This document shows, piece after piece, positions 1 to 64,000 of a stretch of DNA of 64,000 bases (its first letter is position 1; each line of letters opens with the position of its first letter). Under the pieces are notes generated by a model. That model saw nothing but the letters and a program-made list of their open reading frames with translations, did no database searches and was not told the origin of the DNA. The stretch spans positions 2,178,977 to 2,242,976 of the forward strand of contig OZ244974.1 of NCBI GenBank assembly GCA_965222955.1. The letters run 5' to 3'. Origin of the DNA: Hyphomicrobiales bacterium (GTDB lineage: Bacteria > Pseudomonadota > Alphaproteobacteria > Rhizobiales > CBDCVD01). The position numbers were made by a program, and so were the translations under genes.

Positions 1-229
1 GTCGCTCGACCATTGCCAATGTCAAAGGCACGGAACGGGGCGCGCTTACAAAGATATTCACCAGCGGCCTGCCGTCGTCGCCACCCACCTCGATCGTTGC
101 GAGATCGTGATACCGCACACACGCACCGTCGTTGATCGCAATGCCATGAGCGCCGGCCGTCTCTATAACCTGGCCGTATGGGGCAAAAGCGGCTCGTGTG
201 AGAGGCTCGATAATAATCGGATCGCGCAC
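1..229 (-). CDS. allA: ureidoglycolate lyase (AllA family), N-terminal part; gene runs past window start
   Basis: Not in the ORF track because it runs off the edge. My own minus-strand translation from GTG at 229 gives [76 protein letters not shown]. This follows the AllA N-terminal pattern (EPLT..AF.PYG.VIET ... IN.G...RYHDLA ... PLT...ER). Confidence 0.6.
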
Positions 230-388
230 CGCCCGTGTCCCGTCAACTATCGCGAAGCGACTCGATTTTGTTGAGCTTCGCGGCTATTTTGCTCACGACT
301 ATTGGGGCCTTACGGCCCGATCCCTGCGAGGGCGGCGCGAAGCACCGGTCGCACTTTGCTCCTGAAGACATAATCAACATGTAGTCGA

Positions 389-559
389 CTTGAGCGTGGT
401 TCGCCTCGCCAATCGAGAAACAGAATTGCTTCTATTAATACCAGCGGTATTGGCGTTTTGTACACGCTGACTTGTGTGTCGTGCTGATAAGACAACGGTT
501 TTAGACCAAGCCAGGAGTCAAACGCAAAGCCCCCTGGTATAAGACCTGACACGCTATAG
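389..559. repeat. family A hairpin repeat (long form) split by family B MITE copy B1
   Basis: 389..438 (..GTTCGCCTCGCCAATCGAGAAACAGAATTGCTTCTATTAA) matches the 52290..52327 part of copy A7. 540..559 (TAAGACCTGACACGCTATAG) is the matching right arm. The 101-bp B1 lies between them, flanked by TAA on both sides. Confidence 0.8.
439..539 (+). mobile_element. family B MITE-like element, copy B1 (101 bp)
   Basis: TACCAGCGGTATTGGCG...CAAAGCCCCCTGGTA. Terminal inverted repeats are TACCAG(C/G)GG. It is flanked by TAA (436..438) and TAA (540..542), and removing element plus one TAA restores the family A stem CTATTAAGACCTGAC. About 85-90 percent identical by eye to the copies at 33782, 46430 and 56874. 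Confidence 0.8.
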
Positions 560-562
560 CTG

Positions 563-654
563 TGTAACTTCAACAGGTTGTTCCAAATACAGGCAAGCCC
601 GAAGGTACATCTCTTGCGTCCTTGCTGCCAGGGAGGCCATACCGGACCATCCAC
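563..654 (+). repeat. family E repeat, half element (copy E1)
   Basis: GTGTAACTTCAACAGGTTGTTCC...CTCTTGCGTCCTTGCTGCCAGGGAGGCCATACCGGACCAT aligns with 28397..28490 and 18520..18605. It overlaps the 3' end of the dehydratase CDS. Confidence 0.75.
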
Positions 655-1610
655 GGCAGCCTGTCAAGATCAACATTGCCGCCGCTGATGATAACTCCGA
701 CGCGCTTGCCCGCAAAGCGCTCACGATGTTTCAGTATCACCGCAATCGCCACCGCACTTGACGGCTCAATGATAATCTTCATACGCTGCCATATCACATA
801 CATCGCCGCGATAATCTCCTCTTCGCCGGCCAGGAGAATATCGTCCACATATCGTGAGACAAAATGCCAGGTTAAGTCCTTTAGCGGCGCTCGCAGGCCA
901 TCCGCGATCGTATCCGCAGCCTCGATAACAATACGCTGACCGGCCTTTAAAGAGCGATAGGCATCGTCGGCGTTCTCCGGCTCAGCGGCAATGATGCGGG
1001 TGCGCGGGGAGAGTTCGCCACGCGCCAGGCACGAACCCGATACCAGACCGCCCCCGCCAACGGGAAGCACCAGCGCATCAAGCGCCGTCACATCCTCGAA
1101 CAACTCCTTGGCGCAGGTGCCCTGGCCGGCGATCACGCGTGCATCGTCGAAGGGATGCACGAACGTTGCCTTGTGCGCCGCAACAATCTGCGCAACCGCC
1201 GCCTCGCGCCCGGCCATGGTCGGCGCGCATTCTATAATGCCTCCGCCATAGGCGCGCACGGCATCCTTTTTGGCACTTAACGCGTTGTGGGGCATAACGA
1301 CCGTCACCGCAATACCGCGCCGGGCGCCGGCGTAACTCAAGCAAAGGCCATGATTGCCGGAAGAATGGGTTACCAGACCGGCCCGTGTCCGATCCTCGCC
1401 AAGGCCGAAGACGGCGTTGCAGGCCCCGCGCGCCTTGAACGCACCACCCTTTTGAAAATTCTCGCATTTGAAAAACAGCGCGGCGTCTGTGCGTACATCC
1501 AGGGACTGCGCCGTGAGTACCGGCGTGCGGTGAATGTAGGGGGCAATGCGCTCATGCGCCATGCTAACATCGGCATAAGTGGGAATAGCGTTTGTTGTCG
1601 TATCGCCCAC
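570..1610 (-). CDS. PLP-dependent serine/threonine dehydratase family enzyme (serine racemase / threo-3-hydroxyaspartate ammonia-lyase-like) with repeat-derived C-terminal tail
   Basis: Track ORF 570..1649. Fold-type II PLP motifs are present: GAFKARGA (PLP lysine), HSSGNHG, LPVGGGGL glycine loop, ISGGNVDL. I set the start at GTG 1610 (..GDTTTNAIPTYADV) because ATG 1649 adds an Arg-rich leader; the start is uncertain. The last ~27 codons and the TGA stop lie inside repeat E1. Confidence 0.8.
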   Translation of the reverse strand: MGDTTTNAIPTYADVSMAHERIAPYIHRTPVLTAQSLDVRTDAALFFKCENFQKGGAFKARGACNAVFGLGEDRTRAGLVTHSSGNHGLCLSYAGARRGIAVTVVMPHNALSAKKDAVRAYGGGIIECAPTMAGREAAVAQIVAAHKATFVHPFDDARVIAGQGTCAKELFEDVTALDALVLPVGGGGLVSGSCLARGELSPRTRIIAAEPENADDAYRSLKAGQRIVIEAADTIADGLRAPLKDLTWHFVSRYVDDILLAGEEEIIAAMYVIWQRMKIIIEPSSAVAIAVILKHRERFAGKRVGVIISGGNVDLDRLPWMVRYGLPGSKDARDVPSGLPVFGTTC

Positions 1611-1669: not shown

Positions 1670-1725
1670 CTGGAGCATGTCAGGTCTTAATAGAACTGGT
1701 TCTATTAAGACCTGACATGCTCTGG
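1670..1725. repeat. family A hairpin repeat, copy A1 (short-loop variant)
   Basis: CTGGAGCATGTCAGGTCTTAATAGAACTGGTTCTATTAAGACCTGACATGCTCTGG, with ~23-bp complementary arms. It is followed by ACACGCTAG, a partial extra arm ending in CTAG at 1731..1734. Confidence 0.85.
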
Positions 1726-1730
1726 ACACG

Positions 1731-2955: not shown

Positions 2956-3168
2956 GGAGATTTTCCGGCGATGGGTTGATCGATTGGCCCGGCCGTGGCT
3001 GTGACCTTTCAGCAGGTTGCGGCCATGGTCGCGGCAGAGCCGGTTCGGGCGATCCACCTGCACCCGATGGCATTTTTGAGAGCACCCTATTGCAGGATCA
3101 TATTTGGCACGTGGAACGTGATTCGATTATGGGCAGAAAATCGTAAAGGCTTGTTACCAAGGATGTTT

Positions 3169-4428: not shown

Positions 4429-4509
4429 GTCTTTAACTTCCTCTACGCAAAACCGTTTGCTACGTCATCGCCGCCGCGACAAAAAGTACCCACAATATCG
4501 CAGCACTAG

Positions 4510-4660
4510 ATGTGTCATTTCAACAGGTTGTTCCCGGGACGGACAAATCTGGCGTGATACCTATTGCGGCCGTCGCCGCGATAGAGCCAGTTCGGGCCAT
4601 TTGTCTGATGATGGCCACCTGCACCCGACAGGTTTGCAAGAACAAACTGCTGAATTGACG
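4510..4660 (+). repeat. family E repeat, full-length copy E2
   Basis: Starts right after CTAG (4506..4509). Left end ATGTGTCATTTCAACAGGTTGTTCCCGG; right end CAAGAACAAACTGCTGAATTGAC (degenerate inverted terminus). The interior holds both internal modules (..GGCCATTTGTCTGATGATGGCC..GCACCCGACAGGTTT). Confidence 0.7.
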
Positions 4661-5681: not shown

Positions 5682-5735
5682 AAATGGTTAACCCTCGATT
5701 GAACCCGGTTGTCCCGACTCCGCGACCCGATCCGC

Positions 5736-5830
5736 TGAATGGTGCTGCTGGCCATCCCTGAAGGCAAGGGCGCAAGAGATGTCACTTCCGGTTTGCCTGT
5801 CTCGGGGAACAACCTGCTGAAAGATCACAT
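5736..5830 (-). repeat. family E repeat, half element (copy E3)
   Basis: ..GGTGCTGCTGGCCATCCCTGAAGGCAAGGGCGCAAGAGAT..CCGGTTTGCCTGTCTCGGGGAACAACCTGCTGAAAGATCACAT is the reverse complement of the module seen in E1, E5 and E9. Confidence 0.75.
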
Positions 5831-5917
5831 CCAGTATTTCCATATTAAGGCCTTTTCCCTATTATAGTCTCAAGCACAAGGCAACCGTATACGAACACCA
5901 TAACACGGCAAATCATC

Positions 5918-6517: not shown

Positions 6518-6535
6518 TAACCGGAAGCCTGGCGA

Positions 6536-6588
6536 GTTGAGTGTGAAAAGTCCCTCGGCTTCGCCTCGGTCTACTTTTTCCATTCGAC
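6536..6588. repeat. family C hairpin repeat, copy C1
   Basis: GTTGAGTGTGAAAAGTCCCTCGGCTTCGCCTCGGTCTACTTTTTCCATTCGAC. The arms GTTGA.TGTGAAAAG / CTTTTTC.ATTC.AC enclose CCCTCGGCTTCGCCTCGG. It fills the gap between convergent yqgE-like and EAL genes. Confidence 0.8.
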
Positions 6589-9500
6589 TATTCAGCCGCC
6601 TCAATTGCGCTGGCATAGTTGATCAGATACCGCTCCGCCTCATCACACGACATGGGCCGTGCATAGAGAAATCCCTGTGCGTATTCCGCCCCCAGCTTCG
6701 CGATTTCCTGGGCATCCGCCTGAGTCTCGATACCGCCGGCGACCACCTCCATACCAAGATCGTGCGCCAGAGCAACGATTGAGCGCAAAATATGCGAGCG
6801 TACACCGCTGGCGGAATGAATGAAGGTGCGATCGATCTTCAACATATCAAAGGGAAACTGCTGCAAATAACTCAGCGATGAATAGCCTGTGCCGAAGTTA
6901 TCGAGACTTAGGCGAATATCGAGATCGCGCAACCGCGCGATAATATGCATCGCCAGTTCCGGATTTTCGATCATCAGGGATTCGGTGATTTCCAGATTAA
7001 ACGTGTTCGGCCTGATGCCATCGCGCGAGAGGACCGCCTTGATTTCGCGAACAAGGTCCTGGCGCAACAACTGCTTGTTGGAAATATTGACATGCATGGT
7101 CATGGGCTTGTTGAGCGTGTACTTGCGTTGCCAGGCGCCCAACTGCCGGCTGGCGTGACTGAGAACGTAAAACCCCAGATCGACAATCATCTCGGAGCGT
7201 TCCGCAACGGGGATAAACTCCCCTGGCAGGATCATGCCACGGCGCGGATGAGCCCAGCGCGCCAGCGCCTCAAAACCACGTAACGTATTGTCTTTCAAGG
7301 AAATAATCGGTTGAAAATACAACTCGATTTCCTTGCGTTTGAGCGCCTCGCCAAGATCACTCTCGCGCAGCATGGGATTGCCCTGGCGCAACGCCGGACG
7401 AAACGCCTCGATCCGCCCACCGCCAAGGCCGCGCGCATGGTACATCGCCAACTCCGCATCGCCCAGCAACGTCGCCGCTTCCAGGTGCTCGCTCTGCGCA
7501 CCGGGCTGAACAACCCCGATGGAGCACGACAGTTTCAGTTCGTGAACCGAAAACGCGATCGGTTCGGCGACGATATTGCGCACCCGTCTGGTAAACTGCG
7601 CGATGGCCTTGGCATCCGTGTACGATAAAAGCAAAATGCCGAAACAGTCCCCGCTGATACGAGCCAACGTATCCTGCGGCTGCAAAAGCCGCGCCATGCG
7701 CCGCGACAGGGTAAGCAGAATCGCATCCCCCATCGACAGGCCGAACTCCTCGTTTATGGCACGAAAGCGATCCACATTGACAACGAGCAGCGTCGGTCTG
7801 GAACCCTTTCCAGGTTCGAGCCGGGTGAGAATCCGCGAAAGACGGTCCAGAAAGAGTTGCCTGTTCGGCAGTCCGGTCAGATTGTCGTTTACGGCATCAT
7901 GCAGCAGCCTCTCCTGGCTCAGGCGGGCTTCCGTCACATCGGCCAAGGTGCCCACACAGCGCACGACGGCATTCGCGGCACTGATAACCGGCCTGGCGCG
8001 CAGTAAAAATATGAAATAGTGCCCATCACAGGCCCGCAGGCGAAACTCCTGCGCAATATGATCGCGCTGACGGGTGACAATGGCATCGAGCGCCTCACGA
8101 TAGATGTCCCGATCACTGGGATGGAGTTGATCCAGCCACTTGTACGCCGGACCGCACAGGGCCCCATAGGCAAGACCCAGCAAATGCTCCACTTTCGTAC
8201 TGGTAAACAACTGGTCGCGATCGACGTCCCAGTCCCAGATCAGATCGCCGGACCCCATCAGCGCCAGGGCGCGACGCTCACGATCCTTGCTTTCGTCGTG
8301 AAGCATTGAGCTTCCTGTGACCGCGTGCTGAAGCACGGTAAAGCCGATCAGCAGGGCGATCAGCACCAGCCCGCCGACCAGCGCCGGCGACGCTATATCG
8401 TTATTCAACCGCCCCGTCGCAACAAGTGCGGCGCCGCTCAGCCACGCCAACAGCAATATCCAGGTCGGCACCAGCATAATCGCGCGATCAAAGCGGCGCA
8501 CGGCAAAGAACCCGATAACGCCCGTACCCGCAACGGCGATCGCTGCCAGCGCCAAACGTGCCAGACCGGACGCAACCGGCGCATTATAAATCGACAGGGC
8601 AATCAGGCCGCCAAGTGCCACAATACAAAACAGCGCTACATGAAAAAAACCCGCATGCCAGCGATTGAGATGCAGGTAACTGTAAAGAAACAGCCACAGT
8701 GTTGCCGCCAGGAGCGCCTCGGCGCCGGCCCGGTAGATTTGATGCTGCCCGATCGTTGCGCCGAATACTTGTCCCCAGAAACCGAAATCGACGACCAGAT
8801 ACCCCAGTACCGCCCAAGCCAGCGCACTAACGGCAACAAATACCAGCCCGCCGCGAATAATCGTCAGCACGCTTAAAAAAAGCACCAGCAGACCGGCTAT
8901 ACCCAGCACAATGCCCTCATAAAAGGTCAGGCGGTTGACACTGTCCTTATAGGCGTCTGGCTCCCACAGATAGAGTTGCGGCAATCGCGTGCCATTCAGT
9001 TCGGCGACAAACGTGACCACCGCGCCAGGATCAAGGGTCAGGCGGAAGATATCCGCATCGACGCGCGCCAGACGCTCCGGCGCAAACCCCTGGCTGGGGG
9101 TAATCGCCCGAATGCGCGAGGCGCCCAGATCGGTCCACAGCACCCCGGAACCGCTAAGGCGGTAATGGGGCGCCACAAGAAGGCGATCCAGTTGCTCATC
9201 CGAGCTGTTGGACAGCGCGAATACGACCCAATCGCCGCTGCCACCGGCGTCGCGCGGCTGCACTTCGATACGGCGCACAATACCATCCGCGTCCGCGGCT
9301 GCGGTAAGCTGAACGCCGCCCGAGCGGTTGCGATGCCACTCCAGCCCTGGCGCCAGGTCCAGCGCCGGCGCCGCGATGTCCACTTCCATGGGCGTTACCC
9401 CTATGGCGGCACCTGGAGCCTGAAGCATCGCCCAGACGAATGCAACCAGATATACCCATAACGGGCATTGCCCGCCCCTGGCTTGCAAGGGGCGGGACGG

Positions 9501-11114: not shown

Positions 11115-11131
11115 CGGCTCTCTCCTTTTTA

Positions 11132-11184
11132 GTTGAATGTGAAAAAGCCCCCTCGGCTTCGCCTCGGTCTGCTTTTTCCGAATA
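11132..11184. repeat. family C hairpin repeat, copy C2 (right arm degenerate)
   Basis: GTTGAATGTGAAAAAGCCCCCTCGGCTTCGCCTCGGTCTGCTTTTTCCGAATAA. Confidence 0.7.
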
Positions 11185-11188: not shown

Positions 11189-11214
11189 AAGGACAACCTG
11201 TTGAAAGATCACAT
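11189..11214 (-). repeat. family E terminus fragment (E4)
   Basis: AAGGACAACCTGTTGAAAGATCACAT followed directly by CTAG (11215..11218). Confidence 0.65.
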
Positions 11215-12063
11215 CTAGCGCACAGCGCCGCGCGCCTGGCGTATGGCTCCGTACAGCCAAACGCCATAAACCAGGACCAACGCCGCGGCAAGGCCAAACC
11301 AGGTTAATGCATAAGCCAGATGATTGTTCGCGAAAACAAGTCGCGTCTCGCCGCCCTGGGGCAAGGCACCGGAAGGACCTGCCATTGCATCAACGTAAAA
11401 CGGCGCCACTCGAATGCCAACGCGGTTCAGACCGTGAGCGCGCGCAAAGGCTGCCGGATCGCGTGTATACCAGACATTGCCGGCGATATCCGCCTCCGGG
11501 CTCGCCCAGTCCGCCCGATGCGCGGAACGAACGATCCCCTCAATCGTCTGCGCGGACACGGTAATGCTCTCGGCGCGCGTATGGGACGCCTTGCGCTCAA
11601 GCGGCACAAAGCCGCGATTCACATAAACAATCGCCTCCCGGGCACCTTCATGGCGCGGCGCCCTCATGCCATCGGCACAGTCAGACGCGTTCAGGCGCAG
11701 AGGCGTCAGAACCCAGTATCCCTGCCCCCCAAACCGGCCCCTCGGCTCGCTGAGAGCGGTATAAACATGGGCTTCGAGATCATGCAGAAAACACCCGCGT
11801 AGCTGCACGCGCGTATAAGCCGACAACGCTTCCTCCACGCCACCCAATGAACGTGGCACCGTTGCCATCCGCGTCTCGATTGCAGCCAGCAACCCGGTTT
11901 TCCATTTCAGCCGGTGTAACTGCCAACGCCCCAGCGCGAGCAGCACCAGCAAGGCGGCAAGCGCAAAAACCGTGAAAATAACAACGCGGGGGTGGCGTAG
12001 CATTTCAGGAACGGACAAATTCGCCGGATTCCAGCGTGCGCTGTCATGCCTGGTGTTCATCAT
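11215..12063 (-). CDS. SURF1 family cytochrome oxidase biogenesis protein
   Basis: N-terminal TM followed by LGRWQLHRLKWK (the SURF1 hallmark), and a C-terminal TM with YALTWFGLA. It lies in the cta cluster. Start may be a downstream ATG (12003). The TAG stop lies in a CTAG abutting E4. Confidence 0.85.
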   Translation of the reverse strand: MMNTRHDSARWNPANLSVPEMLRHPRVVIFTVFALAALLVLLALGRWQLHRLKWKTGLLAAIETRMATVPRSLGGVEEALSAYTRVQLRGCFLHDLEAHVYTALSEPRGRFGGQGYWVLTPLRLNASDCADGMRAPRHEGAREAIVYVNRGFVPLERKASHTRAESITVSAQTIEGIVRSAHRADWASPEADIAGNVWYTRDPAAFARAHGLNRVGIRVAPFYVDAMAGPSGALPQGGETRLVFANNHLAYALTWFGLAAALVLVYGVWLYGAIRQARGAVR

Positions 12064-12421: not shown

Positions 12422-12520
12422 ATGGCCAAACCTCTATGCTGCGCGCCAAAGCCCCCTGCCTTCACAGCTAGAGCGTGTTATGTCTTGACAAAACCAATCT
12501 AACGGAGTGCAAATTCACCG

Positions 12521-18187: not shown

Positions 18188-18511
18188 TCACATTATCGCA
18201 CGTATTGCCGCACATATAATCGCATATTCTCGCCCGCTGACGTGCATTGGCTGGCCGCGGGGATGCGAATACAACCCCTGACACACCCTGGCCTGCCCTG
18301 ACCTGCCCTGACGCGTTTCCCACAACGAGGCGGTTCGCAAGCACACCCGAGCCCACCAGGGGAATCATCCGGTTTCGACTCGATACCCCGTCCCGCGGTT
18401 CTAACAAAGCATATCATGGCGGCGGCATCAATTCCCTTTTCGGTCCATGGATGCGGCATTTTTTCCGAACCGGCGTCCATTGATGCCAAACACCAGCGCC
18501 CATGCATTCAG

Positions 18512-18650
18512 GTGTGATCTTTCAGCACGTTGTTTCCAGGACAGGCAAACCGGATGGGATCCCTCTTGTGCCCTTGCCGCCAGGGAGGCCATATCGGGCC
18601 ATCCATCTGCACCCGACGGGTTTACCAGGAACAACCTGTTGAAATTACAT
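18512..18650 (+). repeat. family E repeat, full-length copy E5
   Basis: GTGTGATCTTTCAGCACGTTGTTTCCAGGACAGGCAAACCGGATGGGAT..CCCTTGCCGCCAGGGAGGCCATATCGGGCCATCCATCTGCACCCGACGGGTTTACCAGGAACAACCTGTTGAAATTACAT. Both termini and both internal modules are present. A family A one-arm fragment follows at 18653..18668 (TTAGAGCGTGTCCAGG). Confidence 0.85.
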
Positions 18651-18837
18651 ATTTAGAGCGTGTCCAGGCCGGACAACAAGTGCGGTTCGCGGCCATCACG
18701 GAAACGAATTCGCCCCGGTACCATGATTCGCGTGATATTCCATGATATTCATTGTACCGTTGTTGTGCTGCTGTGATTTGACCCTGTGGGATGACGGGAT
18801 GGCTTGAGGTAAACGTTGCTCATTTTATAGACTCCAG

Positions 18838-18904
18838 ATGTGATCAGATCGACGGCCAGCAGCACCCGACGGGATTTTCGCGAACAACCTGTTGAAAGAT
18901 CACA
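18838..18904 (-). repeat. family E repeat, short copy E6
   Basis: ATGTGATCAGATCGACGGCCAGCAGCACCCGACGGGATTTTCGCGAACAACCTGTTGAAAGATCACA. The left terminus is truncated; the right terminus is complete. Confidence 0.75.
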
Positions 18905-18969
18905 ACCAGCCATTATAACATTCCACTGGAAGGTTGAATTTGACATTCGAGAACGCACCCGGTGGCAAA

Positions 18970-18998
18970 CGGGACTCAAATGTCAGGTGCGTTCCATT
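18970..18998 (+). repeat. 29-bp repeat G1 (second copy at 35386)
   Basis: CGGGACTCAAATGTCAGGTGCGTTCCATT versus CGGGACTCAAATGTCAAATTCGTTCCATC: 25 of 29 identical, same strand. Confidence 0.5.
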
Positions 18999-19601: not shown

Positions 19602-19650
19602 AGCCAGGTGTGTAAATGCAACAGATTGTTCCCGGTGAATCCAGCGGATG
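19602..19650 (+). repeat. family E terminus fragment (E15)
   Basis: AGCCAGGTGTGTAAATGCAACAGATTGTTCCCGG.. (compare E14 CCAGGTGTGTAATTTCAGCAGGTTGTCCCTG). It is followed by a family A one-arm fragment, CTGGAGCGTGTCAG, at 19651..19664. Confidence 0.6.
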
Positions 19651-19685
19651 CTGGAGCGTGTCAGTTTTTAGCTGAAAGGCTCTAG

Positions 19686-21130
19686 CAGTGTGTCGGGTTT
19701 AAGGAGTTGTTTGTCAGTGTATCGGTCATGGATATGTGTTGGCGAGGGCTTTGCTGAACCTGCCTTAGCCGCTCAGCATGTTGCTCAGACGTTTGCAGTT
19801 GTACGCCAGCGCTACAAGACACCATTCCCGTGAAACCTTCTCAAGACCGCGAAGATGAAAATGCCTGAAACCAAGTACCGATTTGATTATGCCAAAAACA
19901 GGCTCAACGCTGCTCTTTCGTCTTTTGTATTTGTCTTTTGCCGACCGGGATCGAAATCTCTCCAGCATCTGTAAGCGCCACGGCTCTCTAACACGAGGCG
20001 GCGGCTTGCTGCGCGCCTTCGGCGGCCGGAAATCATAAGGGCGCCGTGCCTGTTCACGCTCTAACGCTATCAAAGGTTCAATGTCACGCTCATCAAGCGC
20101 CTCAACAACAGTCTTACCAGCATAACCCGTATCCGCTATAAGCGTCTCGGGCTTGCCAACACGCGCGCACAAGTCATCAACAAAGATATCCAAATCCTGA
20201 CGATCATTCGTCGTGGTAAGAACTTGCGTACCCAAAACCAATTGGCTGCCATCCGCATCCACAAAAGCTTGCGCATTATAAGCCTGACGGTATTCGTGGC
20301 GTGACGACCGGCGCATGATAGAACTGTCCGGATCGCTCAGATTAATCTGGTTCTCAGGACAAGGCCGTGGCGGATTGCCCCCATCATCCTGATCTTGCCC
20401 ATCACAACGCGCCGCCGCCTCAAGTTGTGCGGCTGCCACGTCCAACTTCGCCTTTAACGTTTGCCGCCGCGCTATCTCGTCGGGGAGAGACAAACCATCA
20501 TCCGTATCCTGTTCATCTGCCGCCTCGGCCCTGTCCATCAACGCCGCAATGTCCTCTGCAAGCTTCGCCCGTAACGCCTGGATACGATCATAACGTATCG
20601 ACTTGATCTTTGAAGCATTCGCATCAATCTGCGTGCCGTCGAGGGCGACCGTGCCCACCCTTAAAAGACCCATCTGTTTGGCCAGCAACAGGATATGCGT
20701 AAACGCCGCCTCAAAGGCAGGACCGTTGTCACGCCGGAACTTGGCGATCGTGTCATGGTCCGGATGGCTGTTGGCGGCGATAAAGCGGACAGAAACATTG
20801 CGATACGTTGCCTGCTCTATCTTGCGCGAGGAAAAAACACCAATGGCGTAACTATAAATCAACAGGGCCACCATCATGCGCGGATGATATTGTGCTTTTC
20901 CTGAGCCGGTGCGGCTGACGTGAAAGGCGTTCATATCTATGCGTTCGACGGCTTCCACGATAAAATGGGCCAAGTCGTCATCTGCCACCCAGTCTTTGAG
21001 ATCAGGAGGCAAAAGCAGCCGCTGAGAGCGGTCATAATTGCGAAAATTGTTCATACAAATCCGTAGCACAAATCCAAAAACCCCTGTATGCAAACTTAAC
21101 GAATAACCACAGCATAAATCCGACACACTG
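19686..21130 (-). mobile_element. IS1182-family insertion sequence, apparently intact (1445 bp)
   Basis: Terminal inverted repeats are CAGTGTGTCGGGTTTAAGG (19686->) and CAGTGTGTCGGATTTATG (reverse complement of ..21130). The first 11 nt are identical and about 15 of the first 17 match. Direct CTAG at 19682..19685 and 21131..21134 is consistent with a 4-bp target duplication. It carries a single transposase ORF. Confidence 0.85.
19765..21054 (-). CDS. IS1182-family (IS5-like DDE) transposase
   Basis: N-terminus MNNFRNYDRSQRLLLPPDLKDWVADDDLAHFIVEAVERIDM and C-terminal VEPVFGIIKSVLGFRHFHLRGLEKVSREWCLVALAYNCKRL are characteristic of IS1182-group transposases. An acidic coiled middle is present. 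Start set at ATG 21054. Confidence 0.85.
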   Translation of the reverse strand: MNNFRNYDRSQRLLLPPDLKDWVADDDLAHFIVEAVERIDMNAFHVSRTGSGKAQYHPRMMVALLIYSYAIGVFSSRKIEQATYRNVSVRFIAANSHPDHDTIAKFRRDNGPAFEAAFTHILLLAKQMGLLRVGTVALDGTQIDANASKIKSIRYDRIQALRAKLAEDIAALMDRAEAADEQDTDDGLSLPDEIARRQTLKAKLDVAAAQLEAAARCDGQDQDDGGNPPRPCPENQINLSDPDSSIMRRSSRHEYRQAYNAQAFVDADGSQLVLGTQVLTTTNDRQDLDIFVDDLCARVGKPETLIADTGYAGKTVVEALDERDIEPLIALEREQARRPYDFRPPKARSKPPPRVREPWRLQMLERFRSRSAKDKYKRRKSSVEPVFGIIKSVLGFRHFHLRGLEKVSREWCLVALAYNCKRLSNMLSG

Positions 21131-21162
21131 CTAGAAGTTTCACCTCAGATTTATCCGTCTTG

Positions 21163-21188
21163 TACACAACCTGCTGAAAAATCACACT
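21163..21188 (-). repeat. family E terminus fragment (E7)
   Basis: TACACAACCTGCTGAAAAATCACACT, a degenerate match to GAACAACCTG(C/T)TGAAAGATCACAT. Confidence 0.5.
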
Positions 21189-37365: not shown

Positions 37366-37377
37366 ACCATGAAATTA

Positions 37378-37432: not shown

Positions 37433-37437
37433 TTTGT

Positions 37438-46168: not shown

Positions 46169-46429
46169 ACACTGCCAATCGTCGCAGCCGTGGCGCCGAT
46201 ATCGCAGGGATCAGCGGTGGTGAGCCGGAGCGGCCGTTTTCTTCGCGGAACGCCGGATGCCGACGGGTTTATTGCGTGGCTGCGTTTGCGGAAAAGCGCG
46301 GGAAAGCGTCTGAACAACGCCTGCGCCGCAATCACTGACGTCCGGCCGGTTTTCATCATGTGCTTCGTGTACCTTGTATACTTTGTGTGCATCGCTCTCC
46401 CCGGGCATATGCGCAGATCAGGTATGTAA

Positions 46430-46528
46430 TACCAGCGGTATTGGTTTTCTACACGCTGACGTGTGCATCGTACTGACAAGACAACAGTTTTAAACCAAAC
46501 CAGGAGTCAAGCGCAAAGCCCCTTGTTA
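46430..46528 (+). mobile_element. family B MITE-like element, copy B3 (right end degenerate)
   Basis: TACCAGCGGTATTGGTTTTCTACACGCTGACGTGTGCATCGTACTGACAAGACAACAGTTTTAAACCAAACCAGGAGTCAAGCGCAAAGCCCCTTGTTA. The left flank is TAA. Confidence 0.75.
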
Positions 46529-46562
46529 TCAGATATATAATACCCGCGGCGCTAGAGCGTGT

Positions 46563-46823
46563 CATGTCAGCAGGCTGTTCTCAAGAAAACCATCGGGTGC
46601 AGGGGGCCATTCATCCGATCATTAGAGATGTTCTATTTATCCTGCGCTGTCAAGGGCGCTTCGCACCGCCCGTGGCGGTTCTTAAACCTTTGACAGTGCA
46701 GGATAAATAGAAAAAAAGCGATGATCAGATCAATGGCCCGGTATGGCCTTGCTGGCGGCAAGGGCGTATAAGGTATCCCTTCCGGTTTGCCTGTCCTGGG
46801 AACAACCTGCCGAAGGGTCGCCT
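46563..46823 (+). repeat. family E repeat, full-length copy E11 carrying a nested 82-bp hairpin
   Basis: CATGTCAGCAGGCTGTTCTCAAGAAAACCATCGGGTGCAGGGGGCCATTCATCCGATCATT ... GGCCCGGTATGGCCTTGCTGGCGGCAAGGGCG..CCGGTTTGCCTGTCCTGGGAACAACCTGCCGAAGG. It is preceded by a family A one-arm fragment (CTAGAGCGTGTCA, 46552..46564). Confidence 0.75.
46631..46712. repeat. singleton 82-bp hairpin nested in E11
   Basis: Arms TTCTATTTATCCTGCGCTGTCAA (46631..46653) and TTGACAGTGCAGGATAAATAGAA (46690..46712), with one mismatch. I saw no other copy in the window. Confidence 0.7.
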
Positions 46824-46885
46824 CTAGAGCGTGTCAGGTCTCAATAGAAGCAATTCTGTTTCTATTAAGACCTGACACGCTCCAG
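46824..46885. repeat. family A hairpin repeat, copy A6 (loop inverted relative to A2/A4)
   Basis: CTAGAGCGTGTCAGGTCTCAATAGAAGCAATTCTGTTTCTATTAAGACCTGACACGCTCCAG. It is followed by CGCCAATACCGCTGTAA, a solo family B terminus-like fragment (46886..46902). Confidence 0.9.
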
Positions 46886-48379: not shown

Positions 48380-48456
48380 CGGAGTGTGGCGCAGCCTGGT
48401 AGCGCACCTCGTTCGGGACGAGGGGGTCGCAGGTTCAAATCCTGCCACTCCGACCA
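48380..48456 (+). tRNA. tRNA-Pro (anticodon CGG)
   Basis: Hand-folded cloverleaf: acceptor CGGAGTG/CACTCCG, D stem GCGC/GCGC, anticodon stem CCTCG/CGAGG with loop TTCGGGA, T stem GCAGG/CCTGC with loop TTCAAAT, discriminator A and encoded CCA. 77 nt. Confidence 0.95.
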
Positions 48457-48460: not shown

Positions 48461-48515
48461 GTTGAACGTGAAAAAGTCCCCCGGCTTTGCCTCGGTCTAC
48501 TTTTTCACATTCAAC
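48461..48515. repeat. family C hairpin repeat, copy C4
   Basis: GTTGAACGTGAAAAAGTCCCCCGGCTTTGCCTCGGTCTACTTTTTCACATTCAAC. It starts 4 nt after the tRNA 3' end. Confidence 0.85.
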
Positions 48516-48518
48516 GGA

Positions 48519-50941: not shown

Positions 50942-52279
50942 ATGGCTGTCGATGAACTCGCCAAACCTCTTGTTTTTTCGCGCTACGCCAGAGTCGAGCA
51001 CAATCACCTGGACACTGTGCTGACGGGCGGCGGGCTCGTTTGCGTGGCGGCGTTTTTGCTGGTACTGGCGTGGGGCGCGCTGGTCAATGACCGTCTGGGT
51101 GGCGAACCCCATGCGATCGTTGCCCTTAGCACCATGACGCCGGCTCCTGCCCCGCCGGCAAGCTCTTCTCCACCGGGGCTGGCATCGCGGCAGATCGCGG
51201 CGCTTGGCGACGACAACGGCGCCTTGCTTGAAAATGAGACGCTGGCACCGGACCGACACACCGATGAGGCGCTTCGCGATGCCGCCGATCCTCTTGCGAC
51301 ATTATCTGATTCTGAAGATAGCGCCGACGTCGATTTATTGATTGCGCAGGCGGAGGATGAGCTCAGCGATGCGCAACTCGCCGCCCTGGATCAATTTGGC
51401 GCGCGCGTCGATGGCGGCGATCCGGACGTCAAATCGACCGGCTCCGTTAGCAAGGCGCCGGCCTTTCGCAAGACCGCACGGCCGCTTGCCGAATTGGTGG
51501 AGGCGACGGAATACGGTCCGCTGCCGCGCATTGGACGCTCCGGCCGGCGCCCCCTCGAGGCCTATTCGCGCGCCACTTCCGCCCCGCACGGCTTTGGCGC
51601 ATTGCCGCGTATCGCCATTATGGTCGGCGGCCTGGGCATCTCGCAAACCGCGACCATGCGGGCCATCGACAATTTGCCGCCGCAGGTGACATTTGCCTTC
51701 GCGCCCTATGGCAATTCGCTTGGCCGCTGGACGGAACGGGCCCGCCAGCGCGGTCATGAATATCTGTTGCAGGTGCCGATGGAACCGATCAATTATCCGG
51801 CCAATAATCCGGGTCCCCATACCTTGCTGGCAAAGGCGCCACCGGCGCAAAACGCAAGGAAGCTGCGTTGGCTGATGGGGCGTATTCCCTCCTATACGGG
51901 GCTGGTAAACTATATGGGGGCGCGCTTCACCCAGGAGCCGGAGGCCATGGCGTCGGTTTTGAAACAAACAAGGGAACGCGGCCTGATGTATTTTGACGAT
52001 GGCAGCACCGCGGGCAGGACAACACGCAGCCTGGCGCGCAAGCTGGGGGCGCCCTATGCGCGCGGCGATCTTGTGATTGACGCCATTCCCACCAAGCGGG
52101 CCATTCGCCAGCGTCTGACGGACCTGGAGAATCTGGCGCGGCAGCGTGGCTTTGCCATTGGCATTGCGACCGGCTTGCCGGTCAGTATCGCCGAGATATC
52201 GGGATGGGCCAAGAACTTGCAGGGGCGCGGATTCTTGCTGGTGCCGATCAGTTCCATGGCGCGCGCGAGCGGCGCCTAG
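50942..52279 (+). CDS. divergent polysaccharide deacetylase family protein (YibQ-like)
   Basis: N-terminal TM and a low-complexity linker, then PRIAIMVGGLGISQTATMRAIDNLPPQVTFAFAPYG...LLQVPMEPINYP..NPGPHTLL. The TAG stop is part of the CTAG that opens A7. Confidence 0.7.
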   Translation: MAVDELAKPLVFSRYARVEHNHLDTVLTGGGLVCVAAFLLVLAWGALVNDRLGGEPHAIVALSTMTPAPAPPASSSPPGLASRQIAALGDDNGALLENETLAPDRHTDEALRDAADPLATLSDSEDSADVDLLIAQAEDELSDAQLAALDQFGARVDGGDPDVKSTGSVSKAPAFRKTARPLAELVEATEYGPLPRIGRSGRRPLEAYSRATSAPHGFGALPRIAIMVGGLGISQTATMRAIDNLPPQVTFAFAPYGNSLGRWTERARQRGHEYLLQVPMEPINYPANNPGPHTLLAKAPPAQNARKLRWLMGRIPSYTGLVNYMGARFTQEPEAMASVLKQTRERGLMYFDDGSTAGRTTRSLARKLGAPYARGDLVIDAIPTKRAIRQRLTDLENLARQRGFAIGIATGLPVSIAEISGWAKNLQGRGFLLVPISSMARASGA

Positions 52280-52344
52280 AGCCTGGGTATCGCCTCGCCA
52301 ATCGAGAAACAGAATTGCTTCTATTAAGACCTGACACGCTCTAG
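52276..52344. repeat. family A repeat, copy A7 (long form, one extended arm)
   Basis: CTAGAGCCTGGGTATCGCCTCGCCAATCGAGAAACAGAATTGCTTCTATTAAGACCTGACACGCTCTAG. Confidence 0.85.
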
Positions 52345-52428
52345 TGAAATCGAAAACCTCGAATGATCAGATGGATGGCCCGCAGAACCCGATGGGTTTT
52401 TCGAGAACAACGTGCTGAAAGATCACAT
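52345..52428 (-). repeat. family E repeat, half element (E12)
   Basis: ..GAATGATCAGATGGATGGCCCGCAGAACCCGATGGGTTTTTCGAGAACAACGTGCTGAAAGATCACAT. It is followed by CTGCAGCGTGTCCGG, a family A arm-like fragment (52429..52443). Confidence 0.75.
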
Positions 52429-52479
52429 CTGCAGCGTGTCCGGTTCTGAAAACCGGCGGCTGTCACGAAAGCGCACCAT

Positions 52480-53603: not shown

Positions 53604-53627
53604 TATACTTTACACTGAACGCAACAC

Positions 53628-53687
53628 CAGATACATCTCGCCCAGATACATCTCGCCCAGATACATCTCGCCCAGATACATCTCGCA
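53628..53687. repeat. 15-bp tandem repeat, 4 units
   Basis: CAGATACATCTCGCC x3 perfect (53628..53672), plus CAGATACATCTCGCA (53673..53687). It starts 25 nt upstream of the SH3-gene ORF start, in a divergent intergenic region. Confidence 0.95.
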
Positions 53688-54084
53688 ATGAGCACCTGCT
53701 CCGCAATTTCTCTCCTTATACGTAGCATTGCCCTGCACAACCACTACGATTAGCGGCCACTGGCAGGCCCGCGATGCGACGACAAACAGCGGCCGGTTAA
53801 CCATGGGATCGCACGCCGTCGCGATGATTTCGCCTGTTTTGCCGCAAAATCGACCAGCGCCTGGTTAACAATTATGCGCCAGGAAGGTTAATGAAATCTA
53901 GCCAGGCCATGGCACTCATCAACAGAGGCTGCGCCCTTTCGCACGCCTATTGACAAATCCCCGACGGTCAGACCAAATAAACCCACGCCAAAGAAGGGGC
54001 GGTTACGTTCGCGCATCCGGTGCGCAACAGGCCGATCCCAGGTCATTACACCATCCCATAGGCGATCCTGCAGGGTTTATCGAA

Positions 54085-55107
54085 ATGACGCAAACCAGGA
54101 CCCGGGCGAGAACAAGTCTTAAAGTGCGACCCAAAGCGCGCGTCGTCGTCACCCGCCGGCTGCCGGAGCCGGTAGAGTCGCGATTGCGCGAGTTGTTTGA
54201 CGTCACCCTCAACGGCGCCGATGAGCCGATGTCACGTGATGCGTTGCTGGCGGCGGTTCGCGAGGTGGACATTCTGGTGCCGACAATAACCGATATAATT
54301 GACAAGGGAATACTCTTTCAGGCGGGCGAGCGGCTAAAGCTGATCGCGAATTTCGGCAATGGCGTCGACAATATCGATGTCGCGGCCGCCGACAGTCATG
54401 GCATCATGGTTACCAACACCCCCGATGTGCTGAGCGAGGACACAGCGGATATGACCATGGCGCTTATTCTGGCCGTACCGCGGCGCCTGAGCGAGGGGAT
54501 CCGTATCATGCGCTCCAACACATGGCAGGGCTGGTCGCCCACCTGGATGCTGGGGCGGCGCATCTGGGGCAAGCGTCTGGGCATTATTGGACTGGGGCGT
54601 ATCGGCCAGGCGGTGGCGCGCCGCGCGCGCGCCTTTGGCATGCGGGTTCACTATCACAATCGCCGCCGCGTTTCTGCCGCCCTGGAGGAAGAGCTCCAGG
54701 TGCGCTACTGGGAATCCCTCGATCAGATGCTGGCGCGGATGGATGTCGTTTCCATTCACTGCCCCCATACGCCGGCGACCTATCATTTGCTCTCGGCGCG
54801 GCGGCTGAAACTGTTGCCCCCCCATGCCTATATCGTCAACACCGCGCGCGGCGAGATCGTCGATGAGAATGCCCTGGTACGCATGTTGAACGGTGGCGAT
54901 CTGGCCGGTGCCGCGCTTGATGTGTTCGAACATGAGCCGGCGGTGAATTCCACCCTGGCGGCGTGTGAGCGCGTCCTGCTTTTGCCGCATATGAGTTCGG
55001 CCACGATGGAGGGGCGTATGGACATGGGCGAACGGGTTATTCTGAACATCAAGGCGTTTCTGGACGGCCAACGGCCGCCGGACCGGGTGGTGGCCTCGAT
55101 GCTGTAA
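54085..55107 (+). CDS. D-isomer-specific 2-hydroxyacid dehydrogenase (glyoxylate/hydroxypyruvate reductase-like)
   Basis: 340 aa from ATG 54085. GIIGLGRIGQAVARRA (NAD fold), NTARGEIVDE, HMSSAT. The TAA stop directly abuts E13. Confidence 0.85.
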   Translation: MTQTRTRARTSLKVRPKARVVVTRRLPEPVESRLRELFDVTLNGADEPMSRDALLAAVREVDILVPTITDIIDKGILFQAGERLKLIANFGNGVDNIDVAAADSHGIMVTNTPDVLSEDTADMTMALILAVPRRLSEGIRIMRSNTWQGWSPTWMLGRRIWGKRLGIIGLGRIGQAVARRARAFGMRVHYHNRRRVSAALEEELQVRYWESLDQMLARMDVVSIHCPHTPATYHLLSARRLKLLPPHAYIVNTARGEIVDENALVRMLNGGDLAGAALDVFEHEPAVNSTLAACERVLLLPHMSSATMEGRMDMGERVILNIKAFLDGQRPPDRVVASML

Positions 55108-55210
55108 ATGTGATCCTGCAGCAGCTTGTCCCTGGTAAACCCATCGGGTGCTGTTGGCCATTCATCTGCTCATTGCCTTTTTTCGAGAACACCCTGTTGA
55201 AGTTACCCAT
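55108..55210 (+). repeat. family E repeat, short full copy E13
   Basis: ATGTGATCCTGCAGCAGCTTGTCCCTGGTAAACCCATCGGGTGCTGTTGGCCATTCATCTGCTCATTGCC..CGAGAACACCCTGTTGAAGTTACCCAT. Confidence 0.8.
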
Positions 55211-56469: not shown

Positions 56470-56873
56470 CGCCGCCCCTGCCCTGCGGGGCGCCTTGTCA
56501 TGGGTTTTCCATAAACATGGGTCCGCGTATTTGCATTTGACAATCAGTCTTAACTGTGATTAGTGTGTCTGCGCTACTAATCAATAAATAATTAATAGCC
56601 AACAACAACAATGTTGGGGGGCGTGCGGTGCGGTTTGCGTTTGGAGAGATTGGACAGACGAGGTCCTTTGCATTTGTTATTTGGCGCGACTCTCCGCAAA
56701 CAATAGTGCTGCCGTCCACCCGGCACTTGTAGCGAATTGATCGTGAAGAAAAGTCCTTCGCTCCGCTCAGTACACTTTTCCTTATTTGAAACAATGAGAA
56801 AACAACGCTCAAGGGGGCGTGGCGCTGTGTTTTCGCCTGGGCTTCTCGCAAGGTTTGGCGCATTTGCGCATAA

Positions 56874-56974
56874 TACCAGGGGGCTTTGCGTTTGACTCCT
56901 GACCCGGTTTAAAACCGTTGTATTATCATCACGACACACAAGCCGGCGCGTACAAAACGCCAATACCGCTGGTA
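56874..56974 (-). mobile_element. family B MITE-like element, copy B4 (inverted)
   Basis: TACCAGGGGGCTTTGCGTTTGACTCCTGACCCGGTTTAAAACCGTTGTATTATCATCACGACACACAAGCCGGCGCGTACAAAACGCCAATACCGCTGGTA. It is flanked by TAA on both sides. Confidence 0.85.
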
Positions 56975-57054
56975 TAACCTTGCGATTTCCGATCATGACG
57001 AACGGTCATGATCGACCAATATAAATGCCAAATCAGCCCGCCGGGCCGTCCCAG

Positions 57055-57181
57055 GTGTGTAATTTCAGCAGGTTGTCCCTGATAAACCCATCGGGTACAG
57101 GGGGCCATCTGCGGCAAAGGCCGCAAGAGGGGTAACGTCATCCTGGCCCGTCCCGAACACAACCTGCCATAAGATCACACC
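57055..57181 (+). repeat. family E repeat, full copy E14
   Basis: GGTGTGTAATTTCAGCAGGTTGTCCCTGATAAACCCATCGGGTACAGGGGGCCATCTGCGG...CCCGAACACAACCTGCCATAAGATCACACC. Its right terminus contains the icd stop codon. Confidence 0.8.
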
Positions 57182-62826: not shown

Positions 62827-62849
62827 GAACCATCCAACGGGTTATCTTG

Positions 62850-62883
62850 CCTGCGACATTGTTTTCCCTGCGACATTGTTTTC
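62850..62883. repeat. 17-bp perfect tandem duplication upstream of mrcA
   Basis: CCTGCGACATTGTTTTC CCTGCGACATTGTTTTC, lying 24-57 nt upstream of the mrcA GTG start. Confidence 0.9.
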
Positions 62884-63041
62884 TGTGCTCTTTTCGAACC
62901 GGGCACCGGCATGTTGGCACGGGACCAAACAGTGGTGCTGTACGCTTCTGACTTTACCCATTCTCAACCGTAAATGAGACGATTACGTGACACGTGCCGC
63001 AGGGTTGGGGCCGTTTTGTCAAGGGCCTTGCCTTGCGCCGG

Positions 63042-64000
63042 TTATGGCGCGCGAATATCGGCGGTGTGTTTGTTGAAATAGCCGTGTATGGCGGCGCTCA
63101 TGCCGGCGGCGACCTTGTCGCGCCAGGCGATTGACTGCAGGCGTTCTTCATCGCGGCGGTTTGACATATACCCCAACTCGATGAGTACCGAGGGGATACC
63201 GGGCGCTGAAAGGACGAAAAAATTGGCCCGTTTGTGAGGGTATTTACGAACTTTTGTAATTTTCCTGATGTTTTTAATCAATTTACGCGCTAAAAGCGTT
63301 GAAAACGCTTTAGTTTCTCGCATCATTAGGTCGTCAAGAATACTCACCACCGTCTTCGGCATATCCGATACCGACAACCCCGCAACAAGATCGGCGCGGT
63401 TCTCTTTTTCCGCATAAGCCGCCGCCTGCCGATCGGTAGCCCGACGGGAACCCGTATAGATGGTGGTTCCCCGAACGGAATTCTCGTTGAACGCATCGGC
63501 GTGAAAGGAAATGAACAGCGCCGCCTCGGCGGCGCGGGCAAATTGCAGTCTTTGCGGCAACGACACAAAGCGATCATCGGTACGCGTCATGCGTATATCG
63601 AAGCGCCCGCCGTCGCTCAAGTGCCGCTTTAACGCGTGGGCAAAAGCGAGGACGACATCTTTTTCGCGCGTCCCCAGCCGTCCGGTGGTTCCCCCATCGA
63701 TGCCACCATGACCGGGATCCAGCACGATGACCGGGCGATGGGGGGGGTGTGCGGCGTCCTGCAGGTTCCGCCCTGGCGTCCCCCTGCCTGCCTCGCCCCC
63801 GTGATCGTCGCGCCAGGGGGTACGCGATGCGCTCTGGCGCAATGCCGCCTGGCCCGCCGCCGCCTTGAACGATGCTGCATCGGACGGCGACAAAAGCAGG
63901 CTGTAGCTGAAACCGCCATTCCTGTGGACCCGGACGTGGCTGTTCTCGATCCTGACAGGCGCCGCGATGGCAAAGACGATGCGGGCGCGTCCGGGCGAAA
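63042..64000 (-). CDS. N-acetylmuramoyl-L-alanine amidase (Amidase_3, AmiC-like), C-terminal part; 5' end beyond window
   Basis: VIVLDPGHGGIDGG, DVVLAFAHAL, FISFHADA, VLIELGYMSN. The frame stays open upstream of the track start (TTG 63893) to the window end (..RARIVFAIAAPVRIENSHVRVHRNGGFSYSLL, AMIN-domain-like). The gene is therefore 5'-truncated by the window. Confidence 0.85.
   Translation of the reverse strand, partial: SPGRARIVFAIAAPVRIENSHVRVHRNGGFSYSLLLSPSDAASFKAAAGQAALRQSASRTPWRDDHGGEAGRGTPGRNLQDAAHPPHRPVIVLDPGHGGIDGGTTGRLGTREKDVVLAFAHALKRHLSDGGRFDIRMTRTDDRFVSLPQRLQFARAAEAALFISFHADAFNENSVRGTTIYTGSRRATDRQAAAYAEKENRADLVAGLSVSDMPKTVVSILDDLMMRETKAFSTLLARKLIKNIRKITKVRKYPHKRANFFVLSAPGIPSVLIELGYMSNRRDEERLQSIAWRDKVAAGMSAAIHGYFNKHTADIRAP

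Follow-up and report, generated by a model that had tools for sequence, protein, structure and literature searches.

The 64,000-nucleotide stretch of contig OZ244974.1 from a Hyphomicrobiales bacterium (the window, at its full length) contains some 35-40 copies of short repeats from at least five families, termed A to E, which probably constitute a guild of non-autonomous transposable elements resembling MITEs (miniature transposable elements with inverted repeats), layered on one another together with one autonomous insertion sequence (IS). The window is alphaproteobacterial housekeeping chromosome (ctaD, thrC, purL, leuC and the gene for penicillin-binding protein 1A; G+C 58%). Among 5.8 billion proteins searched, the closest homologue of its PurL is 70% identical in amino acids and resides on OZ245032.1, a 3.5-Mb Hyphomicrobiales metagenome-assembled genome (MAG), and the remaining homologues, from Rhodoligotrophos, Parvibaculum, Kaistia and Bauldia, show 64-67% identity. 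No close relative of the source genome was found in the protein, genome or metagenome collections searched; as the best PurL match is only 70% identical, the source genome represents an unsampled Hyphomicrobiales lineage, of which the MAG (72% nucleotide identity in purL) is a distant relative. A scan of the genome collection with the family A arm returned, among the matches listed, this MAG only, with at least 27 loci, and the 238 kb of OZ245032.1 which served as a sample for repeat counts hold about 57 copies of family B and 53 family A arms. The repeats are a property of the genome, and not of the particular gene neighbourhood.

Repeat families and their insertion sites

The census was compiled with nhmmer profiles, one per family and built from the window copies, and the hits were merged into elements. 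In total, 34 elements were obtained (15 of E, nine of A, four each of B and C, and two of D), with short A-arm fragments in addition, visible in the sequence near 18653, 19651, 32546, 34609, 46552 and 52429; the preliminary estimate by eye of at least five palindromic or MITE-like families in about 40 copies, including its counts for E, B, C and D, is borne out. With up to three mismatches allowed, the A arm AGCGTGTCAGGTCTTAATAGAA is matched 13 times in the window and never in 100 shuffles, and the A copies lie where they had been reported; at the same threshold the E terminus is matched four times. Self-BLAST of the window delivered 26 repeat-covered intervals. All families are small and multicopy (element size 55-355 bp, 34 elements in 64 kb) and lack the capacity to encode a transposase, with terminal inverted repeats (TIRs) of about 30 bp in A, imperfect ones of about 22 nucleotides (nt) in B and 26-nt termini in the long form of E, while in C (50-58 bp) and D (63-75 bp) the whole element is a hairpin. 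The repeats cover 2,877 bp, or 4.5% of the window and roughly 25% of its approximately 9.7 kb of intergenic DNA, the intergenic figures resting on an approximate gene map, and are found in 22 of the 45 gaps of at least 30 bp, in divergent, convergent and co-directional gaps alike. The intergenic space is therefore dense in repeats and not saturated, as had been said, although most longer gaps do hold at least one (about 12-13 of the 18 gaps of at least 200 bp). The overlap with called open reading frames (ORFs) amounts to 455 bp, at over-extended ORF starts or at stop codons, such that no conserved coding core is interrupted, in line with the first inspection.

Family A, whose terminus reads TA-GAGCGTGTCAGG, is best described from its parent. 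Most A arms of the MAG mark the left or right end of an element of about 275 bp, here called A-long, the copies of which are 90-97% identical to one another; the window copy at 28039-28393 equals the MAG consensus of A-long plus an insertion of family D, and the same composite occurs in the MAG at locus L002 with 89% identity. The window mostly retains mini-hairpins devoid of the A-long interior. Its 62-bp hairpins are made of the left 26 nt and the right 36 nt of A-long, and at 52276-52344 the left head TAGAGC is joined to the right 60 nt or so at a GAGCGTG microhomology; the 62-bp hairpins would thus appear to be internal-deletion derivatives of A-long, formed at short microhomologies. The copies at 389-559 and 52276-52344, initially taken for split hairpins, are truncated or deleted forms of this parent.

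With regard to the target, 36 of the 53 A arms in the MAG are flanked by CTAG, the others by TTAG, CTAA and similar tetranucleotides. Complete A elements, 31 in number and drawn from the MAG, from plasmids and from metagenomes (26 of them with a length of 270-291 bp), end TA-GAGC...GCTC-TA, and the two outer flanking bases, written around a single TA, give CTAG in 12 cases, CTAA in seven, TTAG in four, TTAA in four and other sequences in four, with the TA lying within YTAR (Y, pyrimidine; R, purine) at the ends of 27 of the 31. Because the outermost flank bases vary independently on the two sides, a duplication of TA within a YTAR target is indicated. CTAG as a 4-bp target-site duplication (TSD) was rejected, its outermost bases differing between the two sides in the wider family; the CTAG flank seen at the outset stands, in a different meaning. 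Nested copies furnish paralogous empty sites. The B copy at 436-544 sits in an A arm in the form TTCTAT-TAA(B)TAA-GACCTGACACGCT, and intact arms read TTCTATTAAGACCTG, which is the exact paralogous empty site; D in A-long (28204-28277) and B in A-long (MAG) provide the other cases.

Family B (terminus TACCAGCGG) is bordered by direct TAA, TTA or TGA repeats, hence a 3-bp TNA duplication, in most of the approximately 57 MAG copies and in two of the four in the window, namely TAA/TAA at 436-544 and TTA/TTA at 56870-56977; the remaining two are imperfect. Head-to-tail dimers of B with a common TA (...CTTGGTATATGCCAGCGG...) were observed in the MAG, at loci among L005, L010, L018, L019 and L024, as were composites of B with A-long and D in several copies, such as the three D-B units, nearly identical to one another, at L019 4887-5497. 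Family E (terminus ATGTGATCTTTCAGC) has CTAG-like tetranucleotides as outer flanks and carries, like the resident IS, a GTGT(C/G) terminal motif. The elements of the window are as follows (strand in brackets, with a dot where none is assigned).

385-443/540-559 (.): A-long right-end fragment interrupted by a nested B; 385-443 is 92% identical to 28052-28111
436-544 (+): family B MITE, 109 bp, ends TACCAG...CTGGTA (nhmmer E=2e-37)
559-658 (+): family E half (terminus and X module), one ATAG between E and the A arm (profile search)
1670-1725 (.): family A mini-hairpin, 55 bp, flanks CTGG...CTGG, same G>A in both arms (arm matches)
3038-3102 (+): family E fragment (Y module and degenerate terminus; nhmmer E=7e-7)
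4508-4660 (+): family E long form, CTAG on the left flank (profile search)
5705-5831 (-): family E long form with the exact 26-nt terminus ATGTGATCTTTCAGCAGGTTGTTCCC (pattern and profile search)
6535-6590 (+): family C hairpin, 18-bp stem, between convergent genes (nhmmer E=3e-18; fold -21 kcal/mol, z=-4.7)
11131-11180 (+): family C copy, 3' arm truncated (profile search)
11190-11215 (-): solo family E terminus, CTAG-flanked (sequence inspection)
12468-12509 (.): family A element, weak match (nhmmer)
18509-18652 (+): family E full long form, two 26-nt inverted termini around X and Y modules (profile search, fold)
18653-18668 (+): fragment of an A arm, TTAG-AGCGTGTCC, directly at the E end (sequence)
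18840-18906 (+): family E short form, 67 bp, with the direct repeat CCAG...CCAG as flanks (sequence, flank comparison)
19608-19683 (+): left part of an E-like shell (terminus and A-arm fragment), split by the IS (sequence)
19684-21132 (-): IS1182-family IS of about 1.45 kb, ends GCAGTGTGTCGGG.../...CCGACACACTGC, flanks CTA-...-TAG, transposase ORF 19765-21126 (NF033551)
21133-21189 (-): right-hand remainder of the E-like shell that the IS splits (sequence)
22653-22714 (.): family A mini-hairpin; its junction TAG at 22654-22656 is the stop of ORF 21973-22656 (fold -43.8 kcal/mol, z=-11.6)
22715-22770 (+): family E half (terminus and Y module), one CTAT common with the A copy (sequence)
23757-23817 (.): family A mini-hairpin with uncompensated arm mutations (arm matches)
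26452-26513 (.): family A mini-hairpin whose junction TAG forms the stop of purL (arm matches)
28039-28393 (+): full A-long (core of about 275 bp) with nested D; its junction TAG is the stop of ORF 27410-28042 (nhmmer E=1e-99)
28204-28277 (+): family D hairpin inside A-long (profile search, fold)
28394-28488 (+): family E half (variant terminus and X module), one CTAG common with A-long (sequence)
33780-33887 (+): family B MITE (nhmmer E=4e-37)
37303-37375 (-): family D hairpin adjoining a family C copy (profile search)
37376-37433 (-): family C hairpin (profile search, fold)
37436-37463 (-): family E terminus alone; its outer flank reads CTAT on the strand matched and ATAG on the plus strand (sequence)
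46426-46533 (+): family B MITE, right end degenerate (profile search)
46552-46624 (+): family E half, terminus replaced by the A-arm start CTAG-AGCGTGTCAT (sequence)
46631-46712 (.): hairpin of about 80 bp, stem of about 25 bp TTCTATTTATCCTGC...GCAGGATAAATAGAA, between two E halves (self inverted match; DNA fold -30.7 kcal/mol, z=-7.5)
46723-46823 (-): family E half (X module and terminus), one CTAG common with the A copy (sequence)
46824-46885 (.): family A mini-hairpin (arm matches)
48461-48516 (+): family C hairpin, following tRNA-Pro(CGG) (48380-48456) after 4 nt (profile search)
52276-52344, by profile 52273-52344 (.): 69-bp A-long deletion derivative; its junction TAG is the stop of ORF 50942-52279 (sequence comparison)
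52362-52429 (+): family E short form, right end abutting the A-arm fragment CTGC-AGCGTGTCC at 52429-52433 (profile search)
55108-55208 (+): family E half, starting directly after the TAA stop of ORF 53950-55107 (sequence)
56870-56977 (-): family B MITE with the TTA/TTA duplication (flank comparison)
57055-57181 (+): family E element (terminus and Y module, degenerate remainder; profile search)

Several further observations attach to this inventory. A sixth family may be represented by the hairpin at 46631-46712, the outer ends of which are similar to the A arm's inner ends. Downstream of ORF 31384-32529, at 32543-32610, a terminator-like hairpin GAATCCCCGC...GCGGGGATTC (z=-5.0) comes directly after a fragment of an A arm, CTGG-AGCGTGTCAG. 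A two-copy repeat of about 77 bp (18923-18997 and 35338-35413, 78% identity) falls outside families A to E, and its fold is not strong (z=-1.2). Unrelated to A to E is also a perfect tandem array of four 15-bp units (CCAGATACATCTCGC) at 53627-53686, situated in a 346-bp gap between divergent genes.

The scarce CTAG target and the probable exchange of elements between genomes

The tetranucleotide CTAG occurs 19 times in the window, against 236 occurrences expected from mononucleotide composition or 86 from a first-order Markov model, and the other palindromic tetramers occur 88-1037 times. Ten of the 19 are located at annotated repeat edges, two flank the IS and two lie in A fragments (34619, 46552). 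Each of the six junctions between A and E features exactly one tetranucleotide between the two elements (ATAG, TTAG, CTAT, CTAG, CTAG and CTGC), which refines the adjacency of A and E seen at first; at the junction formerly placed at 52344/52345, E starts at 52362 only, and it is its far end that abuts the A-arm fragment. Since CTAG is scarce and insertion regenerates the target at both ends, new insertions land beside or inside old ones, and arrays result. Together with the TSDs, the nesting and the empty sites, this agrees with the initial picture of mobile repeats in arrays, comparable to expansions of repetitive extragenic palindromes (REPs) and bacterial interspersed mosaic elements (BIMEs), of Correia elements or of Rickettsia palindromic elements (RPEs).

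Stop codons enter in the same way. The TAG at the junction closes an ORF of at least 80 codons at 15 of 53 A termini, compared with 8.9% of all TAGs, and four genes of the window, purL included, end at an A junction TAG; the purL stop codon of the MAG, the only orthologous site compared and in a 72%-identical genome, has no A copy. The scarcity of CTAG, with most of its surviving copies at element ends, can by itself account for the arrays of A and E, the nesting and the A copies on stop codons.

The comparison of the two genomes points to traffic between them. Families A, B and D as well as the IS are 85-95% identical overall between window and MAG (the IS 92%, A-long 85-95%) and occupy different sites, and set against purL at 72% nucleotide identity this indicates horizontal spread. 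A, B and D are abundant in the 238 kb of the MAG, while C and E are essentially absent there and, in the sequences compared, are lineage-specific. Such family-by-family differences imply different host ranges, as is expected of mobile DNA. An exact pattern of the E terminus plus the Y module gave zero matches in the metagenome collection, plasmid searches with B, with E and with C plus D gave none either, and in pSym-type and other plasmids no member of families A to E was found except relatives of A-long in Phyllobacterium and Aminobacter.

The resident IS (19684-21132) belongs to the IS1182 family. Its transposase matches NCBIfam NF033551 with 325.5 bits (cutoff 270; E=6e-97), the MAG homologue carries PF05598, PF01609 and PF13751, and the best plasmid matches are annotated as IS1182 family, at only 54% identity. 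Its two inverted repeats, left and right, can be aligned with each other at z=6.2, and the IS is itself nested in the E-like shell. At least six copies with identical ends and different flanks exist in the MAG; four of them, upon comparison, are 99.3-99.5% identical to one another and 92% to the window copy. Of six MAG sites, four coincide exactly with an A end, a fifth with a degenerate one, and the sixth is in GCT-CTAG-AGC. The left end of the IS resembles the A arm with z=3.6-4.3 (4-13 of 2000 shuffles as good), about 14-15 of the 21 terminal nt being common. Among the related loci examined, the IS1182-like transposase was found at MAG loci only. An IS5-family gene near an A-long copy of Aminobacter was also considered as a partner and discarded, there being no matching ends.

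From these features a mechanism can be proposed. Family A duplicates TA upon insertion into YTAR, which is mostly CTAG, and its parent has a length of about 275 bp, TIRs of about 30 bp and a conserved interior. The elements of the guild share the scarce YTAR/CTAG target, with B and its TNA duplication as the exception; D and C take part as hairpin elements, and E as a lineage-specific element with a CTAG-like flank. Natural C-TAG stop codons serve as further targets, the first G of the element rebuilding the stop. Mobilisation would proceed in trans by DDE transposases of the IS5/IS1182 superfamily, for which, in the case of A, the resident IS1182-like element is the best candidate, and the elements may still be active in the source genome. 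Exchange would occur horizontally within an unsampled Hyphomicrobiales clade.

Several points weigh against this interpretation. A CTAG target cannot by itself distinguish a 4-bp from a 2-bp duplication, and the TA reading rests on the wider family. The A copies of the window carry uncompensated arm mutations, so that many may be old and immobile, and the filled/empty comparison of orthologous sites comprises the single, distant purL site. In a purely protein-recognised TIR element, covarying stems such as those found in D and inside A-long are unexpected. The likeness between IS and A arm is limited to about 20 terminal nt, without further homology, and the E terminus, by eye a relative of the IS ends, proved not significant in a shuffle test (z=0.6); what E and the IS have in common is the target and the short terminal motif. 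Neither the window nor 0.53 Mb of related sequence contains an autonomous element with ends matching exactly those of A, B, C, D or E, and a search of the 0.53 Mb for an element of autonomous size bounded by A-type arms yielded none, only B-B or unrelated pairs.

A-long and its conserved interior

Relatives of A-long with 74% identity occur on Phyllobacteriaceae plasmids, from Phyllobacterium and Aminobacter; they measure about 275-290 bp and are CTAG-flanked, with different arms. A search of the plasmids with one A-long variant gave no match. On pcAMD1 of Aminobacter niigataensis (L029, 2442-2777), a 58-bp hairpin CTAA-AGCACGTCCTG...CAGGACGTGCT-CTAG abuts an A-long copy with the CTAG in common, and so shows the same tandem layout on a plasmid of another genus. 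When metagenomes were scanned with TTCTGTTTCTCGRWTGGCGAG, a motif of the interior, 47 loci came up, the ascertainment of which is biased by the use of this conserved 21-mer as search pattern. The arms of the metagenome elements differ between lineages yet remain complementary at 21-25 of 25 positions, and they diverge about twice as fast as the interior.

For 25 elements from at least three clades, RNAalifold predicts an outer stem, two long-range interior helices and two hairpins, with 72 pairs in total, 37 of which have changed on both sides; the structure was derived from the same alignment that was used for scoring. When the interior is taken by itself, pairing holds in 94.6% of cells and two-sided changes affect 18 pairs, compared with 12.5 in shuffles (0 of 500 as good); the covariation score of 0.290 stands against 0.128 in shuffles, and slid controls reach no more than 0.086. 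These changes are concentrated in about three clades, and shuffles are not surpassed in the number of pair types. In some lineages a hairpin expansion of variable length is present at a fixed position. A small-protein gene was considered and rejected, the longest ORFs lying in different frames and strands, with indels that are not multiples of three and no conserved ORF. A scan of the window against Rfam at the gathering score returned tRNA-Pro only, and the A-long loci gave no match on the element even at E<=1; literature searches with the termini of A and E and with motifs of the interior brought up nothing relevant. Relative to co-directional flanking genes (loci L001-L077 and the window copy 28039-28393), the interior motif lies on the same strand in four cases and on the opposite strand in 14, a count which rests on crude ORF-based gene calls and in which the window copy belongs to the minority orientation.

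A dense landscape of MITEs or REPs is a known kind of genome feature; A-long, on the other hand, is apparently undescribed, widespread and structurally conserved. Tentatively, it may be regarded as an undescribed Hyphomicrobiales class of structured mobile element, with a multi-helix core, a fast-evolving complementary stem of about 25-30 bp, insertion at the TA of YTAR and frequent rebuilding of stop codons. Its conservation might then derive from what the RNA or single-stranded DNA does once folded, for instance when the element is mobilised or when mRNA 3' ends are processed, and not from mere descent from an IS.

It is likewise possible, if rather doubtful, that the primary nature of A-long is that of a structured non-coding RNA (or single-stranded DNA fold) with a function, its mobility being incidental; the role might be in 3'-untranslated-region processing, in stability or as a small RNA (sRNA), and the long closing stem, of which only pairing is required, would drift by compensatory change. 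The predicted helices with their two-sided changes, the interior covariation above shuffles and slid controls, and arms which evolve about twice as fast as the interior and stay complementary are what such a function would leave behind; the hairpin expansion at a fixed position, the constant size, the lack of a conserved ORF and the predominance of the opposite orientation point the same way. Against this, the scoring of the structure on its own alignment, the small number of independent events (about three clades), the pair-type count at the level of shuffles and the sampling bias of the 21-mer all lessen the force of the covariation. Moreover, the left and right ends of an IS normally co-vary between IS species without any RNA role, the window and MAG copies gather uncompensated arm mutations, and the mini-hairpins of the window have lost the whole interior.

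Known systems and the remaining explanations

The reading of families A to E as a guild of mobile elements finds counterparts in several systems. IS630 duplicates the TA in 5'-CTAG-3', and IS870 of Agrobacterium vitis uses the target TAG as stop codon of its own ORF. Family A is similar to both in its TA duplication in CTAG and its TAG stop at the junction; unlike the case of IS630, no transposase of the IS630 family (DDE_3) was seen in the window or the sampled loci, and the only IS here that shares the target is of the IS1182 family. IS711 of Brucella, a member of the IS5 superfamily, duplicates the TA of YTAR and prefers the palindromic repeats Bru-RS (PMC2266754). In Bru-RS1/Bru-RS2 and IS711, from the same order, intergenic palindromic repeats of about 100 bp act as hot spots for an IS, just as the MAG IS sits at A ends in four to five of six cases; here, however, the IS belongs to the IS1182 family and not to the IS427 group, and there are at least five families instead of two. 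The enterobacterial repetitive intergenic consensus (ERIC, also intergenic repeat unit, IRU) and the Correia elements (NEMIS/CREE) are TA-flanked MITEs with long TIRs and stable hairpins, often at gene 3' ends and co-transcribed, for which no cognate transposase is known and whose conservation extends over several genera (PMC3184786). Family A is likewise TA-flanked, with long TIRs that fold into stable hairpins. A-long differs from ERIC and Correia in the length of its core (about 275 bp versus 104-157 bp), its conserved multi-helix interior, its YTAR/CTAG target in a CTAG-depleted genome and its host clade, and has no match in Rfam or the literature.

Dense intergenic mosaics of palindromes, lineage-specific and possibly targets for IS, are also formed by REP/BIME, by REPIN-RAYT systems (RAYT, REP-associated tyrosine transposase), by the RIMEs of Sinorhizobium and by the RPEs of Rickettsia. 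REPs are 20-40 bp long, lack a TIR/TSD organisation and depend on a RAYT; RPEs insert into genes in frame. It is unlikely, albeit worth stating, that C, D and perhaps the A mini-hairpins are of the REP/REPIN type, spread by a RAYT, i.e. an IS200/IS605-like Y1 transposase, in place of a DDE enzyme. The hairpins of C, D and mini-A are very stable (fold z=-4.7 to -11.6), the stem of D is kept by compensatory change (7 pairs, score 0.163 versus 0.075 in shuffles), D adjoins C at 37303-37433, and no TSD for C or D could be defined from the copies and flanks compared; with no TSD demonstrated and compensatory change in D, these two families may be REP-like rather than MITEs of the TIR type. By contrast, A, B and E possess TIRs and flanking duplications unlike REPs, C and D are hairpins of 56-75 bp, the elements overall span 56-275 bp and not 20-40 bp, and no GTAG-type head is present, such that neither the size nor the organisation of REPs is found. 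Many D copies end ...GAT-CTAG, a target in common with A. No RAYT gene was seen in the 64 kb, the ORFs of which were viewed without a systematic scan for PF01797.

That the repeats are conserved cis-regulatory or terminator sites, held in place by selection and not mobile, is highly improbable: many copies do lie at gene 3' ends, four A copies start in a stop codon and the hairpins are strong, but TSDs and nested insertions with exact empty sites exist, the A hairpins were rejected as intrinsic terminators (they lack a T-run, and none scored terminator-like), copies occupy gaps of all orientations, and A, B, D and the IS recur at different, unrelated loci in the only relative available, where the purL stop is empty. 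The objection raised beforehand, that relatives might hold the same repeats at the same sites, did not materialise in the one distant relative compared.

For the biology of these bacteria, the guild of mobile elements would mean that a scarce target can shape a repeat landscape, CTAG being 5-12-fold under-represented and most of the surviving copies being element ends. Tiny elements shared at 85-95% identity across a housekeeping divergence of about 70% mark horizontal traffic in an unsampled Hyphomicrobiales clade. These repeats will break short-read assemblies, and they can mislead predictions of sRNAs and terminators in the clade. The part deserving follow-up is A-long, a candidate for a structurally constrained mobile non-coding element, absent from Rfam and the searchable literature.

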